Source: Candidatus Hydrogenedentota bacterium | GTDB lineage: Bacteria > Hydrogenedentota > Hydrogenedentia > Hydrogenedentales > JAEUWI01 | NCBI GenBank assembly: GCA_016182605.1 | Contig: JACPGE010000004.1 | Location: 1,402-65,401 of the forward strand | Length of the DNA: 64,000 nt | Reading direction: 5' to 3' | Shown: in pieces, positions 43,070-64,000 of the stretch | How the letters are laid out: the number at the start of each line of letters is the position of its first letter | Numbering within the stretch: position 1 is the stretch's first letter | The notes under the pieces: model-generated | The model's database searches: none | Seen by the model: the letters and a program-made list of their open reading frames with translations, nothing else | What the model was told of the DNA's origin: nothing | Program-made: the position numbers and the translations under genes

Positions 43070-43312
43070 GCAAACGGGGAGGGAAACAGGCCCGGATGGA
43101 GGACTGACATTCCAATGGGCATGGGTATGCACGTCTTCCAGCCGCGAAGCGGCGCCAGTCAGTAGCCTGGTGGCGTAAGCCCCAGGCAAACGTCGGCTCC
43201 CGTGATGAATCCGCGAAGCGGATGGCAGATTCGGGCGGCGCGCTTGCGGCTGGTGAAACTTGTTACACTGGGTCGAGCCAGTCCGGCCCGGTCTGCAATG
43301 CTGGAGAGTACC

Positions 43313-56673: not shown

Positions 56674-58089
56674 ATGGCGCATTCCAATGGGCAGGAATCG
56701 GACACTACGCCGCCACAGCGCCCGAGTCCCGAACGGGAAAGCTGGATGGACTGGCTCGCGCGCATCTCGGAGCGCCTGGTGCCGGATGCGTTCACCACCG
56801 CCATCGTACTCATGGTCATCCTCGCCGCGCTGGCCCTGTTCCTGGGCAATACGGTCACCGAGACGGTCGACGCCTACTACCGCGGCCTGTGGATGCTCCT
56901 CGCCTTCACCATGCAAATGACCCTCATGCTCACCCTGAGTCTGGTCCTCGCGGAGACGCGCCCCTTTAAGTTCAGCGTCGTCTATCTGTCCCGCATTCCC
57001 AAGAGCGCCACGCAGGTGGTCATCGGTGTGGTGCTGTGCACCGCCGTTCTCGCTTACAGCAACTGGGCCCTTTCCATTGCCCTCGGGCCGATGGTCGCCA
57101 TCCACTTTTGCAAGCAGGCCGAACGCAAAGGCATCCCGGTCGACTTCAACTGGATCATGGCCGTCATCGCGGGCGCGGGTTCCATCTGGCAGTTCGGCAT
57201 GTCCTCCACGGCGCCCCTGCAAATGACCGCCCCAGACAACTTCCTCGCGAAAACCACCGGCGCCATGCCGCTCTCCACGACCATCTGGAGCCCCGCCGCC
57301 CTGACCATGGTGATTTCATTCATCATCGTGACGGCCGTGGTTGGCGTGCTCTTCATGCCGAAGAAGGTGAAGCCCATCTCCCATTTCCAGGAAGCCGACA
57401 AGCTCGCCGAGGCCGCGATAACGGCCGATTACGTGCCACCCGCGACGATCGATCACGACATTTCCTTTGCGCAAAAGATGGAGCGCACCTCCATCACCCT
57501 CATCCCCATGTGGATTGCCCTGGGCGCCTGGATCTTCTACCACTTCGTGACGATGAAGGCCAGCCTCGACATCAACTCCATGATCACGATCCTGCTTCTG
57601 GCGTGCCTGCTGCTTCACCGCACCGTGGGGCGCTTCACCGAAGCCCTGCAACGCGTCATCGTCTCCACCTGGCCCGTCGTCGTCCTCTATCACCTCTACG
57701 CGGGCGTTGCGGGGCTCATCCAGTTCACCGACGTGGGCAATTACCTCGCCACCATGGTCGAACCCATTGCCACCCCCATGACCCTGCCACTGCTCACCGC
57801 GATCATCAGCACGGTCGTGGCGATCTTCATCCCCACCAGTGGCGGTCAGTGGCAGATTCAGGGCTTCGTGACCGTGAGCGCGGCCGAGGCCGCCGGTATT
57901 ACGGCCCAACGCGGCCTCCTCGCCCTCAGCGTGGGGGATCACATGGGGAATTTGATCTCGCCCTTTTGGACGGTCGTCGGCGCCGGCATCGCCCGTGTCG
58001 ATTTCCGCAAGCTCTTCGGCTACCGGCTGATCTTCGCGGCGATTTGGTTCGTCATGGGGGTGATCATCTTTACCTTCCTGCCCTGCTGA
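56674..58089 (+). CDS. atoE: Short-chain fatty acid transporter, AtoE family
   Basis: Recalled from memory, it aligns along its whole length with E. coli AtoE (LLAFTMQMTLML, IPTSGGQWQIQGFV, about 10 TM helices). Confidence 0.8.
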   Translation: MAHSNGQESDTTPPQRPSPERESWMDWLARISERLVPDAFTTAIVLMVILAALALFLGNTVTETVDAYYRGLWMLLAFTMQMTLMLTLSLVLAETRPFKFSVVYLSRIPKSATQVVIGVVLCTAVLAYSNWALSIALGPMVAIHFCKQAERKGIPVDFNWIMAVIAGAGSIWQFGMSSTAPLQMTAPDNFLAKTTGAMPLSTTIWSPAALTMVISFIIVTAVVGVLFMPKKVKPISHFQEADKLAEAAITADYVPPATIDHDISFAQKMERTSITLIPMWIALGAWIFYHFVTMKASLDINSMITILLLACLLLHRTVGRFTEALQRVIVSTWPVVVLYHLYAGVAGLIQFTDVGNYLATMVEPIATPMTLPLLTAIISTVVAIFIPTSGGQWQIQGFVTVSAAEAAGITAQRGLLALSVGDHMGNLISPFWTVVGAGIARVDFRKLFGYRLIFAAIWFVMGVIIFTFLPC

Positions 58090-58425
58090 GCAAATCGGCA
58101 CACGACACCCGCCAACGCACCGTCTGAACACGAAGGTGTGCCCCCGGCCTCAATTAAAAAGCCCCGGAGATCGACCAGAACTGGTCTGTCCATCTCCAAG
58201 CGCCGAGGGGGGGGGGATTAAACACGGCCTTGTCGCGGCGGTCCAATCCACATCCGAAGCTGAATCCAATCGAAGCATACCCGATGGCCCATATTTTGTC
58301 TATTTTATGGTGGGTCCAACAAAGCGCAAGCCACTTCGGATTTTTCCGCTTTTCATGCTACGCTATGGGTTTACGCTCTATGGCGTTCCCGCTGTACCCC
58401 AGATCCCCTGGAAGGAGAATTCGCT

Positions 58426-59226
58426 ATGACCGCGCGCACCCGTTCCCTTCGACTTGCCACCGCACTCTTGCCCGCAATCCTGCTTCTGTTTCTGCCGATT
58501 ACGGCAGGCGCCGCGGAAGGGGAGCAATGGATCAGCCTCTTTAATGGCAAGGACCTGGAGGGCTGGCACGTCAAGATCCGCTACCACGATTTCGACGACA
58601 ATTTTGGCAACACCTTCCGGGTGGAAGATGGGGTGATGAAGGTGGGCTACGAGGCCTACGGCAAGTTCAACGAGACCTTTGGGCACATCTACTACAAAGA
58701 GCCCTTTTCCAACTACCGCTTCCGGGTAGAGTACCGCTTCACGGGCGAGCAGGCGCCGGGTGGCCCGGGCTGGGCAACGCGCAACAGCGGCATCATGCTG
58801 CATTGCCAGGATCCCAAGACCATCGAAAAGGACCAGGACTTTCCGGTGTCGATTGAAGTGCAGTTCCTCGGCGGGGATGGCAAGAAAGAGCGCACGACGG
58901 GCAACCTCTGCACACCGGGCACCAACGTGGTGATGAAGGACAAGCTCATCACCCAGCACTGCACGAACTCCACGTCCAAGACCTTTCACGGCGACCAGTG
59001 GGTAACGGCGGAAGTGGAGGTGCACAACAGCAAGAGCATCAAGCACTTCATCAACGGCGAACTGGTGCTGGAGTATGAACTTCCCCAGCTCGACGAAAAG
59101 GACGCCTACGGCAAGAAGCTGATCAAGGACGGCGAACTGCTCCTCGGCGGCGGCTATATTTCGCTTCAGTCCGAGAGCCACCCGGTAGAGTTCCGCAGGA
59201 TCGAGATACTGCCGCTGGACGAATAG
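58426..59226 (+). CDS. Secreted DUF1080 (3-keto-disaccharide hydrolase-like) protein
   Basis: Signal peptide. WISLFNGKDLEGWHV...GIMLHCQ...ISLQSESHPVEFRRIEI is the canonical DUF1080 pattern. Confidence 0.8.
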   Translation: MTARTRSLRLATALLPAILLLFLPITAGAAEGEQWISLFNGKDLEGWHVKIRYHDFDDNFGNTFRVEDGVMKVGYEAYGKFNETFGHIYYKEPFSNYRFRVEYRFTGEQAPGGPGWATRNSGIMLHCQDPKTIEKDQDFPVSIEVQFLGGDGKKERTTGNLCTPGTNVVMKDKLITQHCTNSTSKTFHGDQWVTAEVEVHNSKSIKHFINGELVLEYELPQLDEKDAYGKKLIKDGELLLGGGYISLQSESHPVEFRRIEILPLDE

Positions 59227-59661
59227 CCAGGGGCATTGCCGGCATCCGTGCAATACCATGATTCCCGGGAGATGTGCCCAATGGGTTATCTCCCGGTTCT
59301 TATTTTTGAAAATACTGCCGTCAAGGCCCCCCATGGCCGGCGGCATGATTCCAGCCGGGGAAGCCCAGCCTGGTGAGTTGCCAGGGGGGCGTTTCGAAAT
59401 AGGCCCGCATCGGGAGACGTCGAAGCCACTGGAGCTTCTTCCCCGTAAGAGCCCATACGAAGGGCTCCAGCAGCGGCCCGGCGCAATAGAAGAAGCCGGC
59501 AATCGGAAAACACCCTGCAATTGCGAAAAACAGGCGCCCGTTTTGCAGAGGGGAACACCGCTCGTGACCTGCACGTGCCGCCCAGGCTCTCCCCACTCAA
59601 TCCAGATCCGTTCTGAAACAGCATGCTCGTAGACTAACTTAAGCCCTGTCAAAAAAATATC

Positions 59662-59691
59662 TTGACAGCGCAGAAATGTTCTTGATATAAA
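59662..59691 (+). promoter_or_regulatory. Near-consensus sigma70 promoter (TTGACA-N18-TATAAA) about 280 nt upstream of the C11 peptidase gene
   Basis: cTTGACAgcgcagaaatgttcttgaTATAAAag sits in an AT-rich intergenic region. An AAGGAG RBS at 59956 precedes the ATG at 59971. Confidence 0.4.
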
Positions 59692-59970
59692 AGTGGAAGA
59701 CTAGATGGGGCTCCAAGCCGATCCATCGAACTGCAAGAAGAGGTATGCGCGAGGTTCCGGCAGTGTCTCTCCGCGGCGCGCGCGGAGCTTATTCAACTAT
59801 GGAGGGGCAACTTTGGCTTCGAGCACACCCACGCACACGTAGCGGCATTTTTCCCGCTGGCGCCGGGATCCGAATCTGTCCAAGTTCATGACGGAAGAGT
59901 TGTGTCTGTTGGTGTCTTCCAAAACGTTTCCATTATTGACAAAACACCCGAAAAGTAAGGAGAAAAGGCC

Positions 59971-61218
59971 ATGAGTAACGAGACCCTTAGCGGCACGGCC
60001 CCATTTGAAATTCAACCCGGCTCCTACACCCATGCCATCCTCGAGGTCTTTGGTGGCGACAACAACTTGAACGATTTTGTCGAAGAAGATCTCCAGGAAA
60101 TGGCAGCGGGCATCGGCCCTTCGGTCATCGTGATCGCGCTGGCGGACTTCTATGGTCACGAGGCCGCGGTCGTGGAAGTCACGGCTGCCCGGGGCTGCCG
60201 CGTAGTGGAGTCCTGGGGCGAAATTGACACGGGCGATCCCGAGATTCTCGCCCACTTCCTGGCACGCGCACTCTCCACCTGCGCCGGCATCGGACATCTC
60301 GCGATCGGATTCTGGGATCATGGATCGGGCGTCTTCGATGAGCACGATCCGAACGAGGTCATCCTGGAGCGCCGGCTCCGATCGGTCACGCGGCATCGCC
60401 GCGCCCCATCGCGCGCGGCACGGCGGCTCTTCATCTCGCGGGGCGCGCTGGCCTCGAAACCCCGTCTCCGGGCCATGCTGCACGACGACACCAATGGCGG
60501 CGTCCTCACAAATGTCGAAGCCAAAAGCGTGATCGCCGCGGCCTTTTCCCGGGCCGGCCGCACCGCGCCGGTCGATATCATCTTTTCCGACACCTGCCTC
60601 AACGGCATGGTGGAAGTACTCGATCAGTTCAAAGACTTTGCGCTTGCAATCGTTGCCTCCGAAGATCTCGAACCGGGCGACGGCTGGGACTACACGGGCT
60701 GGTTTCAACGCATGGCGGCGGCTCCTGCCGCGAACGCCGACGCCTGGGCGCAGCAGGCCGTGGAGGCGTTTCATGCAGGGTATGACGGCCAATTCGGCGC
60801 CTATCCGTGCACTCTGGGCGCGTTCCGGTCGCGCCACGCGATGTCCGAGGCGTTTGCCGCGCTCCTGCGCGTCTGCGACAGCGCCGGCCCTTCGGCCTTC
60901 GACGCGCTCCGCGCGGCACGGGATCAATCCCAGGCCTTCGCGAACCGCGACACCTACGACATCCGGGATTTTGGAATTCAATTGCAGGCCGTCACAAGTG
61001 ACGCCGCCATCCGGAGCGCGGCCCAGAGTCTTATTGATGCGTTTGACGCCGCCTACATCAAGCATGCGGCGCTGGGTTCCCAGGTCGAGCAATCCAACGG
61101 CCTGGCCTTCTGGTTTCCGAACAACCGCTATGCCTTCAACCTGGTGAAGGAAACCTACCGCGAACTGGAATTCAGCAAGGCCACGGGCTGGACCGACTAC
61201 CTTCAATTGCAGTTCTGA
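59971..61218 (+). CDS. Clostripain-like cysteine peptidase, family C11 (caspase fold)
   Basis: Catalytic His in FWDHGSGV and Cys in FSDTCLNG, with spacing typical of C11. Confidence 0.55.
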   Translation: MSNETLSGTAPFEIQPGSYTHAILEVFGGDNNLNDFVEEDLQEMAAGIGPSVIVIALADFYGHEAAVVEVTAARGCRVVESWGEIDTGDPEILAHFLARALSTCAGIGHLAIGFWDHGSGVFDEHDPNEVILERRLRSVTRHRRAPSRAARRLFISRGALASKPRLRAMLHDDTNGGVLTNVEAKSVIAAAFSRAGRTAPVDIIFSDTCLNGMVEVLDQFKDFALAIVASEDLEPGDGWDYTGWFQRMAAAPAANADAWAQQAVEAFHAGYDGQFGAYPCTLGAFRSRHAMSEAFAALLRVCDSAGPSAFDALRAARDQSQAFANRDTYDIRDFGIQLQAVTSDAAIRSAAQSLIDAFDAAYIKHAALGSQVEQSNGLAFWFPNNRYAFNLVKETYRELEFSKATGWTDYLQLQF

Positions 61219-61286
61219 TTGGGAAGCGCTTCGATTGAAGCGCGGATGGGCTGTGTGCCGAAATCACATTCAAGGAGTGGGCTGCG

Positions 61287-63074
61287 ATGCGCAAGAAACT
61301 CAAACTGCTCGGGGTGCACGGACTGGGCGACCACCGGACTTCTCCGTGGAAAGCAAAGTGGGAGGAGGCCATTCGCGGGTGCTTTCCCGCGGCGCCGGAA
61401 GAGGTGGAACTGGAATTCCACTTCATGACGTACGACGACATTTTTGAGAACGTGAACATCTCCATGGCCGATTCCCTGCTCGCCGTTGGCAAGCTTCTGC
61501 GCAGCGGCCTTTTCCGGCGGGAGTTGAGCGGAGCACGCGGTGTCAAAAAGGGCGGCCTGGATCACTGGCTGCGCTGGTATGCGGGCTATGTCGTTGCCTG
61601 GGTCCAAGACAAGGAGTTTCAGGGGCAAACCCGTGCAAAGCTGCTGGCCACATTGGAAGCGGTGAAGCCGGATATCCTGTTGGGGCATAGTCTTGGCTCC
61701 CTGGTCTCGTACAACACCCTGACCCATCCCGATGCGGGCAAAGCGCCCTTCCAGGCCATTCTCAAGAAACTGACCTATGTTAGCCTCGGTTCTCAACTGG
61801 GCAACGCCTTCGTCACACGCAACCTCAGCCCCGGCCGGCTGGAAATGCCGGCAGTACAGCGCTGGTTTCACCTCTACAACGGCGAAGACGACGTCTTCAC
61901 GGCCCCGATACGCCTGTGGGATCCGCGCTTCGAGCAGGTTGAGACCCCCTTCGATATCGAAGGCTTTGCCGATCACGATGCGGTGAAATATCTTAGCAAC
62001 CGGGCCACGGTCGTCCGGGTGTGGTCATCGGCGGCCGCGCGCTCCATGGCGCCTGACCTGAGCGCCGGTGCAGTGCGCAACGTGGAACCGCCCCTGGCGC
62101 GCGCAGCCCGTCCGGGAAAACGCGCGCCCCGCCGGCGGGCGCTCCTCGTGGGCATCAACGAGTATCCGGCGCAGGAAGACCGGCTCGAAGGCTGCGTGAA
62201 TGACACCTACCTGATGAGTTCCGTCTTGCAGGAATGCCATTTCGAGCCGGAAGACATACGCCTCTGCCTGAACGGCCGGGCCACGGCGGCGGGCATCCTG
62301 GAACGGCTGGAATGGCTGCTCGACGATCCCCGGCCCGATGACGAGCTGGTCTTTTACTACAGCGGTCACGGCGCGCAGTTGCCCACCTACGGACTGGGCG
62401 ATCAGGTGGACCGCAAGGACGAGACCCTGGTGCCCCACGACTTTGACTGGACAGTGGGCACGGCCATCAGCGACGATCGGATCTACAGCCTTTACGCTCA
62501 GCTCCCGTATGAGACCAGACTGGTGATGATCTTCGATTGCTGCCATTCGGGAGACATCCACCGTGCGGGCGGTGCGCGGGCGCGGGGCATCACGCCGCCA
62601 GATGACATTCGCCACAGGGCGATCCGCTGGAACGCGGAAATCGGCATGTGGGAGGACCGGGAAATGCGGAAGATCGCCGGGGACTTCTCTTCTGAAGGGG
62701 CGGTTAACACGCAGTATTTTGGCGCAGACCGGAGCACGCTTCGGCTGGGCCGGGCCGCTGCGCTTCGCGGGATCTCCCAGGAAAGCTATGCGGCACAGAA
62801 GGAATCGCAAAAAGGCCGGCCAGTGGGCCCTTATCTTCCGGTCATACTCGAAGCCTGTCAGGAAGCCGAGTTTGCCTATGAGTACCGCCACGGCGTGGAG
62901 AGTTTCGGCGCGTTCACCTTTGCGCTCGCCGCGACCCTTAGGAGAAAGAAATCCATCAGCTTCCGTACGCTGGTCGAGCAGGCTGCGCAGATCCTCTCGG
63001 ACCTGAATTATGCCCAGAAGCCTCAGATCCTCGGTCCGAACAAGATCCTGGATGCCAAGGTACCCTGGCGCTGA
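61287..63074 (+). CDS. Fusion protein: N-terminal alpha/beta-hydrolase (lipase-like GHSLGS nucleophile) and C-terminal caspase/metacaspase (C14) domain
   Basis: N-terminus has LLGVHGLGDH (oxyanion HG) and GHSLGS (GxSxG). C-terminus has the caspase motifs ALLVGINEY, YYSGHGAQ (His) and FDCCHSGD (Cys). Confidence 0.7.
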   Translation: MRKKLKLLGVHGLGDHRTSPWKAKWEEAIRGCFPAAPEEVELEFHFMTYDDIFENVNISMADSLLAVGKLLRSGLFRRELSGARGVKKGGLDHWLRWYAGYVVAWVQDKEFQGQTRAKLLATLEAVKPDILLGHSLGSLVSYNTLTHPDAGKAPFQAILKKLTYVSLGSQLGNAFVTRNLSPGRLEMPAVQRWFHLYNGEDDVFTAPIRLWDPRFEQVETPFDIEGFADHDAVKYLSNRATVVRVWSSAAARSMAPDLSAGAVRNVEPPLARAARPGKRAPRRRALLVGINEYPAQEDRLEGCVNDTYLMSSVLQECHFEPEDIRLCLNGRATAAGILERLEWLLDDPRPDDELVFYYSGHGAQLPTYGLGDQVDRKDETLVPHDFDWTVGTAISDDRIYSLYAQLPYETRLVMIFDCCHSGDIHRAGGARARGITPPDDIRHRAIRWNAEIGMWEDREMRKIAGDFSSEGAVNTQYFGADRSTLRLGRAAALRGISQESYAAQKESQKGRPVGPYLPVILEACQEAEFAYEYRHGVESFGAFTFALAATLRRKKSISFRTLVEQAAQILSDLNYAQKPQILGPNKILDAKVPWR

Positions 63075-63173: not shown

Positions 63174-64000
63174 TTACCGGTACTGCTTGGGCTCGATGCC
63201 GTGCTTGCGCACGCGCAGGCCCATGAGCCGCTCGGTGAGCCCCAGCTCGCGGGCGGCCTTGGCCTTGTTGCCCTTGCCGGTTTTGAGGGCCTCGACCAGC
63301 ATCTCGCGCTCGACGCGCATCAGGGTGTCTTCGAGCGTGCCCTTCATCACCGTGTTCGAGGCTTCCGCAGTCTGAAGCGTGGGGGGGAGGTGGTGCCCGT
63401 GCACCACGTCGTCGTTGGTCAGCAGCACGGCGCGCTCCAGGCAGTTCTCCAGTTCCCGCACGTTGCCGGGCCAGTGGTAGCTCATGAGCATGTCGATGGC
63501 CGGCGTGGAAATGCGCCGCACGTACTTGTGGTTCTGCTTGCTGTATTTCTCCACGAAGAAGTTCGCCAGTTCCAGAATATCCGTGCGCCGTTCGCGCAGG
63601 GGCGGGATATGGATGGGGAAGACGTTGAGCCGGTAGTACAAATCCTGACGGAAACGCTCGTCCTTGATCATCTCTTCGAGATTGCGGTTCGTCGCCGTGA
63701 TAATGCGCACGTCCACTTTTACCGTGGCCGTGCCGCCGACGCGCTCGAACTCGCGTTCCTGAAGAACACGCAGCAGCCGCACCTGGGTTTGCGGCGCGAG
63801 ATCGCCGATTTCATCGAGGAAGATGGTGCCGCCGTGGGCCAGTTCGAAGCGGCCCTGGCGCTGTTGCACGGCGCCGGTGAAGGCGCCCTTTTCATGGCCG
63901 AACAGCTCGCTCTCGATCACCGATTCCGGCAGCGCCGCGCAGTTCACGCGAATGAAGGGCTTTGCCGCTCGGGGGCTGTTGTAGTGAATCGCGTGGGCAA
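63174..64000 (-). CDS. Sigma-54-dependent transcriptional activator (NtrC family), N-terminally truncated by the window end
   Basis: AAA+ sigma-54 interaction domain ([38 protein letters not shown]) and a C-terminal Fis-type HTH. The ORF runs off the window. Confidence 0.85.

Follow-up and report, generated by a model that had tools for sequence, protein, structure and literature searches.

Two adjacent, co-directional genes in a 64,000-nucleotide stretch of Candidatus Hydrogenedentota bacterium DNA (contig JACPGE010000004.1 of assembly GCA_016182605.1; the whole stretch is called the window below) encode a C11 cysteine protease (gene 1) and a fusion of a putative serine hydrolase with a metacaspase (gene 2). 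We consider it probable that the two genes form a functional unit, a split form of a C11/serine-hydrolase/metacaspase module, acting most likely as a proteolytic activation relay. The parts of this reading differ in strength: functional coupling of gene 1 and gene 2 appears highly probable, and the specific relay mechanism is one that we only narrowly favour. The functional link is supported by a protein in which all parts occur on a single chain, by a family of C11-hydrolase-subtilase fusions, and by the enrichment of proteases and serine hydrolases at C11 loci.

The single-chain protein was recovered with a profile of the N-terminal domain of gene 2, which was searched over 1.84 billion representative proteins and gave 737 matches. 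One of them, the truncated P0388, belongs to a 90%-identity cluster that contains the complete 990-aa protein P0424; records in NCBI and Logan place it on 6 contigs, the longest of 158 kb. P0424 is a collinear chain of a gene-1-type C11 protease, a gene-2-type hydrolase and a metacaspase. Residues 27-411 of gene 1 align to residues 12-376 of P0424 with an expectation value (E) of 9e-29, residues 2-586 of gene 2 align to residues 406-983 (39% identity, E 5e-120), and the gene-1-family profile covers residues 12-378 of P0388 nearly end to end (E 4.9e-52). The three active sites of P0424 are intact, and the junction between the C11 protease and the hydrolase is Arg-rich, RPSGRRRRSAVSNR. Judged from its sequence, P0424 is a Rosetta-stone fusion of the window gene pair. 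Its identity is 27% to gene 1 and 39% to gene 2, compared with 60-62% for unfused relatives: gene 1 is closest to C11 proteases partnered with CHAT or CARDB proteins (60%) and gene 2 to solitary forms (62%). Because both genes are far closer to these unfused relatives than to P0424, the combination seems to have arisen on two or more separate occasions, a recurrence better explained by function than by shared descent.

A related architecture carries a subtilase (S8) as the second protease. The 1195-aa product of L120:7525-11112 is a triple fusion of C11, a gene-2-type hydrolase and subtilase, and this C11-hydrolase-S8 family comprises seven clusters of proteins of about 1200 aa with 63-100% identity, including Sphingomonas quercus (L120, P0242-P0247); the six clusters other than L120 lie at 63-71%. 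Profile comparison with hhalign matched the N-terminal domain of gene 2 to the L120 hydrolase with a probability of 85.8% and to the hydrolase of a hydrolase-S8 protein in L129 with a probability of 94.9% (E 5e-8); the C11 protease of L129 is among the closest relatives of gene 1. A gene-2-type hydrolase domain is also fused to a subtilase in the C11 neighbourhood L084. The composition of C11, serine hydrolase and second protease is thereby found co-directional or fused in the window pair, P0424, L120 and P0242-P0247, and in split form in L138, L092, L093, L090 and L140.

Several other fusions and neighbours of these domains were encountered. A patatin gene lies 3 nt 5' of the C11-hydrolase-S8 fusion in both contexts that we read (L141 7702-12597 of Sphingomonas quercus and L120 6079-11112), and in Sphingomonas quercus, a cultured isolate, the patatin and triple-fusion genes are embedded among pentose-phosphate genes. 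C11 is fused to a GDSL lipase in proteins of about 760 aa (P0257, P0258, P0260) and occupies the end of larger proteins (about 1600 aa) that also contain GH19 chitinase, peptidoglycan-binding and cadherin-like domains (P0262, P0264-P0266). The hydrolase-metacaspase core is itself joined to an N-terminal phosphoesterase or phospholipase C (PLC)-like domain (ENRSFDH), to a FAD-oxidase-like domain at either end (GTHGSG), or to a C-terminal HKD/phospholipase D (PLD)-like domain; these extra domains (P0359, P0383, P0402, P0412, P0419; P0349, P0399, P0305, P0329; P0331) were called from motifs alone. The recurrence of lipid-type hydrolase partners, patatin and GDSL together with the PLC- and PLD-like domains assigned by motif, suggests membranes as a possible target.

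The C11 subfamily of gene 1 is a hub for other hydrolytic enzymes. Among 55 C11 loci (47 metagenome loci and 8 further distinct contexts), the gene directly 3' of and co-directional with C11 encodes, in 11 loci, a protein with CHAT (caspase-fold) and transglutaminase-like parts. Two loci, one of them that of the closest relative of gene 1, have a short CHAT protein in this place, and one (L104) has a subtilase; CARDB or large unlabelled proteins lie downstream in other loci. Peptidase_C14 and C11 genes stand together in co-directional arrays in L122, L100 and L103. As a control we used 80 gene-2 loci spanning 1.32 Mb. CHAT was present at 13/55 C11 loci and 0/80 control loci (Fisher p 3e-6), any second protease at 21/55 and 0/80 (Fisher p 4e-10), and a serine hydrolase of either type at 9/55 and 0/80 (Fisher p 2e-4). 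The control sequence contained no C11, CHAT or S8 gene, and C14 was present only as the gene-2 homolog itself. Searches of the unlabelled C11 partners (L108, L130, L111, L096, L099 and the 1408-aa protein of L122) with Pfam and local hidden Markov models found no hidden protease or hydrolase domains.

At the CHAT loci, the second type of serine hydrolase is a DUF7379 protein. A conserved three-gene operon of C11, the CHAT/transglutaminase-like protein (about 800 aa) and DUF7379 was observed in L138 (8001-12958), L092, L093, L095 and L090. Wherever the sequence of a CHAT locus extends far enough downstream (5 loci, four distinct sequences), DUF7379 is the co-directional third gene. The DUF7379 protein has a full serine-hydrolase motif set (FVHGTF, AHSRGG, ND..V and H) and weak matches to PGAP1 and thioesterase. 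It carries an Arg-rich N-terminal extension, about 220 aa long in L092, L093 and L090 and about 140 aa in L138. In L140, a DUF7379-subtilase (S8) fusion directly follows C11. We considered whether the N-terminal domain of gene 2 is itself DUF7379 and rejected this identity: the hhalign probability was 17% and confined to the nucleophile elbow, with no DUF7379 match in Pfam. Within their shared superfamily, the two domains are analogous. Another arrangement, in L129 (1-13260), combines C11, a CARDB protein, a convergent gene-2-type hydrolase-subtilase fusion, a gene for an extracytoplasmic-function-type sigma factor and a large patatin-like protein.

The layout of the window pair is operon-like, which also supports the functional link. 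Gene 1 (59971-61218, +) encodes 415 aa and gene 2 (61287-63074, +) 595 aa, both from ATG starts and both at exactly the positions given by the initial annotation, whose description of adjacent, co-directional genes with a 68-nt spacer holds. Each gene has its own Shine-Dalgarno sequence AAGGAG, read from the sequence at 59957-59962 (+), 8 nt upstream of the ATG of gene 1, and at 61272-61277 (+), 8-9 nt upstream of the ATG of gene 2 and within the spacer (61219-61286, +). Neither a terminator nor a promoter was predicted in the spacer, and its RNA fold was not significant against shuffled sequences (z -0.43). A candidate sigma-70-type promoter of near-consensus sequence lies at 59662-59691 (+), with TTGACA at 59662-59667, an 18-nt gap and TATAAA at 59686-59691; it was read by eye, as the promoter scan demands T at position 6 of the -10 element and so missed TATAAA. 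It is about 280 nt 5' of gene 1, implying a leader of about 270 nt, and falls in a 744-nt stretch in which no gene was called (59227-59970); around this stretch the G+C content is lower (0.57 for 58001-60000). The products of the pair are identical to the public proteins P0121 (gene 1) and P0001 (gene 2), named to a Candidatus Hydrogenedentes metagenome-assembled genome, and an independent assembly has the same gene order.

Gene 1 is a C11 protease of clan CD, as initially annotated, and is predicted to be cytoplasmic. It matches Pfam Peptidase_C11 (PF03415) with E 7.7e-24 and 85.3 bits (cutoff 25.8), and its catalytic dyad, His117 in WDHGSG (codon 60319-60321, +) and Cys209 in SDTCLNG (codon 60595-60597, +), is invariant in an alignment of 27 family members. 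The PDB profile matches are clostripain (9cip, 6n9j, 6mzo) and PmC11 (3uws/4yec). Gene 1 is not a clostripain orthologue, scoring 16.9 bits against a cutoff of 550 for the clostripain equivalog TIGR02806; its subfamily, of about 413 aa and without signal peptide or propeptide, is distinct from clostripain and is 50-61% identical across Pseudomonas, Myxococcus, Acidobacteriota, Planctomycetota and others. The 91-residue linker between His and Cys is Arg-rich, with conserved R134, R141, R144, R146, R151 and R167; it corresponds to the part of clostripain from which an internal peptide is removed during activation (PMC4357240). Clostripain is Arg-specific and requires removal of that peptide for full activity (PMC4357240). 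By analogy with characterised C11 enzymes, Arg/Lys-specific cutting and activating self-cleavage would be expected of the gene 1 protease.

Residues 1-255 of gene 2 (61287-62051, +) form a divergent domain of probable alpha/beta-hydrolase type. Across 26 members, the invariant positions are the oxyanion motif His11-Gly12 (HGLGDHR), Ser135 in [GA]HSLGS (codon 61689-61691, +; GHSLGS in gene 2), Asp201 (codon 61887-61889, +) and Asp229-His230 (His230 codon 61974-61976, +). The triad order of Ser, acid and His, the nucleophile elbow and the HG oxyanion motif are those of alpha/beta-hydrolases. The predicted model has a three-layer alpha/beta architecture, with a mean local confidence (pLDDT) of 85 and a predicted TM-score (pTM) of 0.86, and places Ser135 at a strand-helix elbow (strand 130-134, helix 136-146). 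The domain stays under every Pfam threshold (Ser_hydrolase E 0.05), sub-threshold alpha/beta-hydrolase (Ser_hydrolase) matches are found in 15/17 members, and the best Foldseek match is a lipase at weak similarity (E 1.6e-4, TM <=0.5). The initial description as a lipase-like serine hydrolase stands as regards the invariant oxyanion and GHSLGS motifs and the modelled fold, and its lipid-hydrolase part is no more than plausible. The domain is followed by a variable, basic inter-domain linker of low pLDDT, delimited by alignment (residues 256-282; 62052-62132, +), which ends in GKRAPRRR before ALLVGIN; Arg284 is nearly invariant. This linker may be a cut region for an Arg/Lys-specific protease.

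The C-terminal 320 residues of gene 2 are a true metacaspase (C14B) with a p10 region. The C14 caspase domain that had been annotated behind the hydrolase matches Pfam Peptidase_C14 (PF00656) with E 6.4e-27 over profile positions 1-223 of 233, and His361 of SGHG (codon 62367-62369, +) and D417-C418-C419-H420 of DCCHSG (Cys419 codon 62541-62543, +) are invariant in 26 members. The latter is the DxCH motif used as a criterion for metacaspases (PMC5756287), and the presence of p10 separates metacaspases from orthocaspases and metacaspase-like proteases. The p20 region spans residues 283-425 (62133-62561, +), the p20-p10 linker of about 90 aa residues 426-514 (62562-62828, +), and p10 residues 515-595 and the stop codon (62829-63074, +). 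Degraded catalytic residues, a possibility left standing by the initial annotation, can be dismissed for both genes, whose active-site residues are all intact and invariant in the two family alignments (26-27 full-length relatives from many phyla). In profile searches, gene 2 matched Trypanosoma MCA2, yeast Mca1 and the Arabidopsis enzymes MC9 and MC4 at values between 1e-31 and 1e-24, compared with only 7e-10 for GSU0716 of bacteria; residues 515-583 align with the p10 of TbMCA2 and AtMC9.

In its layout and profile matches, the metacaspase half resembles type II enzymes of plants, with p20, linker and p10 in that order. AtMC9 and AtMC4 rank first in Foldseek, with about 350 columns aligned to AtMC9, and the p20-p10 linker aligns with AtMC9 in a single stretch, whereas the alignment to the type I enzyme TbMCA2 splits around it. 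The linker is predicted to be disordered, yet it is highly conserved (PPDDIRHR, MWxxR458, RLGRA), and its invariant Arg458 aligns within two columns of what we take to be the self-cleavage site of AtMC9, Arg183. Bit scores are nearly equal for the two types (TbMCA2 112, AtMC9 107, AtMC4 101), and type II enzymes have no N-terminal prodomain or extra domain, whereas in gene 2 a 255-residue serine hydrolase precedes p20. The gene 2 linker is also shorter than that of type II metacaspases, which averages 161 +/- 33 aa (PMC3734836). Metacaspases cut after Arg or Lys, and those of type II cleave their own p20-p10 linker (PMC5756287). According to reviews, type II metacaspases are absent from bacteria and the alphaproteobacterial homologs lack p10 (PMC3734836, PMC5756287); contrary to these reviews, the present family, with p10 and a long linker, occurs widely, among others in Caulobacter, Rhizobium, Hoeflea and Roseibium.

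Cleavage activates characterised C11 enzymes and metacaspases alike. For the relay, we propose that the C11 protease would process itself in its Arg-rich His-Cys linker and would then cut the gene 2 protein in a basic linker, either between hydrolase and p20 (residues 270-284) or between p20 and p10 (residues 426-494). The cut might arm the metacaspase, free the hydrolase, or both, and the freed hydrolase would then attack an ester or lipid as the effector of the module. The C11 protease would thus serve as an accessory upstream activator, initiator or regulator and not as an obligate partner. Our inferences here concern which protein cleaves which and where, what the hydrolase acts on, what triggers the module and what its biological role is; for the last, regulated cell death or a damage/stress response is our leading guess.

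The distribution of the two genes across genomes gives a different picture from the fusions. Relatives of gene 2 are encoded in at least 367 of 185,579 species genomes scanned, and our sample of this family consisted of 80 genomic loci with full-length relatives (43-57% identity) from at least a dozen phyla, including cultured Caulobacter, Rhizobium, Hoeflea, Roseibium, Brevundimonas and Maricaulis. Neither tblastn, even with a cutoff of E 10, nor the family profile found a C11 gene within 10 kb of the gene 2 relative in any of the 80 loci, of which 69 extend at least 1.5 kb upstream; conversely, none of the 55 C11 loci contained a gene-2 relative. All-against-all clustering of flanking open reading frames gave no conserved neighbour of any kind for the gene-2 family. 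The initial annotation had proposed co-occurrence across genomes as a check and independent occurrence in most genomes as the outcome that would speak against a module; the genes do occur independently in almost all sampled genomes. We accordingly rejected conserved synteny as a basis for the functional link, the screens being negative both ways.

These screens count in favour of the rival explanation that the two genes are functionally independent and adjacent by chance or through shared regulation only, with gene 2 autonomous and gene 1 a stand-alone cytoplasmic protease. The closest relatives of both genes have neighbours other than the window pair (that of gene 2, at 62% identity, sits after a peptidase M24 gene), about 18 of about 46 C11 loci with readable downstream sequence, including those of Myxococcus and Pseudomonas fluorescens, have no co-directional partner, and each window gene has its own ribosome-binding site. 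Further points weigh against a C11-driven unit. The 149 best representatives included a single fusion cluster of the exact composition; in every other locus examined, namely the 80 genome loci and the two P0002 contigs, the hydrolase-metacaspase family stands alone, and the core clearly functions without C11; no sensor domain or trigger is evident; and we infer the hydrolase fold, together with its lipase-like label, from motifs, sub-threshold Pfam matches and weak Foldseek similarity. We nevertheless regard independence as unlikely: chance adjacency would need to recreate a combination that exists as one polypeptide in P0424, and it must also fit the recurrent pattern of C11, hydrolase and protease, which is lacking from the 1.32 Mb of control sequence apart from the gene-2 homolog. 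In our preferred reading of a functional unit, the hydrolase-metacaspase core must be able to activate itself, since it is solitary in most carriers, and C11 is an added initiator or regulator.

Alternatively, the pair might provide abortive infection against phages, a caspase-type cascade bringing about the death of infected cells; the initial annotation had raised abortive infection as one possibility. Bacterial immunity offers established examples of cascades of caspase-fold proteases and of effectors that proteases activate: SAVED-CHAT with PCaspase (10.1101/2023.06.23.546230), TIR with a caspase-like protein (10.1101/2024.10.24.620036), gasdermins with proteases (10.1101/2021.06.07.447441) and nuclease-protease pairs (PMC12799240). 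Phospholipase-type partners recur around the C11 and core families (patatin and GDSL, and PLC-like and PLD-like by motif), and the PADLOC models 'caspase', 'chat' and 'subtilase', which presumably derive from the gasdermin system, match gene 2 and C11 partner proteins. 'Caspase' is the sole PADLOC model matching gene 2, over the p20 part only (profile 5-157 of 453), and no PADLOC model matched gene 1. A defence-island context was rejected when 128 neighbours of 32 gene-2 relatives were scanned with PADLOC and Pfam: they are mostly housekeeping genes (AcrB, formate-tetrahydrofolate ligase, catalase, methionine synthase, urocanase, tRNA synthetase and similar), and each PADLOC model was matched by one protein only, mostly generic UvrD-helicase models. 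The window neighbours of the pair are an SCFA_trans transporter, a DUF1080 hydrolase (3keto-disac_hyd) and a sigma-54 activator, and between the DUF1080 gene and the activator no unassigned gene is present besides the pair. No gasdermin, SAVED, TIR, STAND, TPR sensor or CRISPR/cas partner was found at the window locus, and no gasdermin gene in the C11 loci. Neither family was found on viral contigs, and the plasmid search returned only two distant C11 genes (24-28% identity) for gene 1 and no match covering 80% of gene 2. Both families are also highly conserved across phyla (45-62%), unlike fast-evolving defence genes. The phage-defence role thus found no backing in its context, and we judge it quite unlikely. 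Far less probable is that the pair consists of secreted degradative enzymes for nutrient acquisition, a C11 protease co-expressed with an esterase. Archetypal members of C11, such as clostripain, are secreted enzymes (PMC4357240), domains typical of extracellular proteins (CARDB, or chitinase, peptidoglycan-binding and cadherin-like) occur in some C11 partners, and the upstream window genes concern carbohydrate and short-chain fatty-acid use. The products of the pair, by contrast, have no signal peptide, as already noted in the initial annotation, and their conserved N-termini directly enter the first beta-strand of the catalytic fold (alignments, and the model of the gene 2 N-terminal domain). 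Characterised metacaspases, moreover, are intracellular.

The functional unit that we favour resembles several known systems in part. SAVED-CHAT and PCaspase of type III-B CRISPR (10.1101/2023.06.23.546230) are likewise two clan-CD proteases encoded together, one of them the proposed activator by cleavage, but the window pair has no CRISPR-Cas, SAVED sensor or cyclic-oligoadenylate signalling, its upstream protease is C11 and not CHAT, its downstream protein adds a serine hydrolase, and its context is housekeeping. Type IV Thoeris includes a TIR partner, which the window locus lacks. C14, CHAT and subtilase proteases accompany bacterial gasdermins (10.1101/2021.06.07.447441), and the gasdermin-protease systems of bacteria and fungi (10.1101/2021.06.07.447441; PMC8851545) share with our loci the same partner proteases beside a cleavage-activated, membrane-directed effector. 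Unlike them, the window and C11 loci contain no gasdermin, the putative effector would be an enzyme and not a pore former, and the proteases lack repeat or NACHT sensor domains. In MARTX toxins, a clan-CD cysteine protease domain (CPD) releases adjacent effector domains by inter-domain cutting (PMC4357240), and the placement of the protease on the effector polypeptide in MARTX and TcdA-TcdB (C80, clan CD) is comparable to P0424 and the C11-hydrolase-S8 fusions with their basic linkers. The present proteins differ in belonging to C11, with an expected specificity for Arg/Lys and not Leu, in lacking RTX repeats, secretion signals and an inositol hexakisphosphate pocket, and in being apparently cytoplasmic and bacterial-acting. 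Plant type II metacaspases (AtMC9, AtMC4; PDB 8a53, 9n3d, 6w8s) share p20-long linker-p10, DxCH and the top Foldseek ranks, and gene 2 aligns to the AtMC9 profile in a single stretch of 311 positions (E 7.7e-30), with the type I TbMCA2 equally good (2.6e-31); gene 2, however, is bacterial and has an N-terminal serine-hydrolase domain that the plant enzymes lack. The nuclease-protease pairs of antiviral systems (PMC12799240) are also modular combinations of a protease and a proenzyme effector, repeatedly reassembled, but theirs join a trypsin-like protease to a nuclease in known defence systems, whereas here clan CD or S8 is combined with a serine hydrolase and no defence context was seen.

The literature that we searched for clostripain or C11 with CHAT, metacaspase, hydrolase or fusion yielded no relevant paper, in agreement with the initial statement that no system of exactly this composition had been described, and neither the 2012 nor the 2016 survey of prokaryotic caspase homologs lists the hydrolase-metacaspase/C11 architecture. 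The component families and protease relays are known; the triad, its modular variants and its sensor-less distribution in housekeeping contexts are undescribed in the literature searched.

Two other features of the window may be recorded here. The C-terminal part of the apparent sigma-54-dependent AAA+ transcriptional activator (63174-63947, -) is convergent with gene 2 and was assigned from translated motifs alone (GAFTGA loop and C-terminal helix-turn-helix). An Rfam scan found no family in or near the gene pair or in the 744-nt upstream stretch; its sole match in the window is an Acido-Lenti-1 small RNA at 43140-43186 (-), with 43.7 bits and E 1.4e-6, above the gathering score.

Gasdermins, CRISPR-linked caspases, TIR-caspase systems and nuclease-protease pairs have recently shown that cascades of proteases, and effectors activated by proteases, are central to immunity and cell death in bacteria. 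To our knowledge, all known bacterial examples are tied to a dedicated sensor. The trio of C11, a lipase-like hydrolase and a metacaspase, CHAT or subtilase recurs fused, split and part-swapped across many phyla, without a recognisable sensor and outside defence islands. The system is directly testable through three catalytic residues and two basic linkers, and cultured carriers are available: Sphingomonas with the subtilase-containing fusion, and Caulobacter, Rhizobium, Roseibium and Hoeflea with the solitary core. A much broader reading, which we hold to be doubtful when all its parts are taken jointly, is that these proteins may represent a widespread sensor-less class of protease-armed hydrolases. 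It would combine a cytoplasmic C11 initiator with swappable proteases (metacaspase, CHAT, subtilase) and lipid-directed hydrolases of two alpha/beta families, GDSL, patatin and possibly PLC- and PLD-like types, and would destroy membranes or cause cell death in a regulated way on an intracellular cue, for example upon Ca2+ influx or envelope damage; under the same reading, plant type II metacaspases would have the hydrolase-metacaspase core as their bacterial sister group. The metacaspase half bears in any case on the long-standing question of a bacterial origin of the eukaryotic metacaspase types, and such a bacterial sister group, if true, would overturn the view that type II metacaspases arose only in the green lineage.

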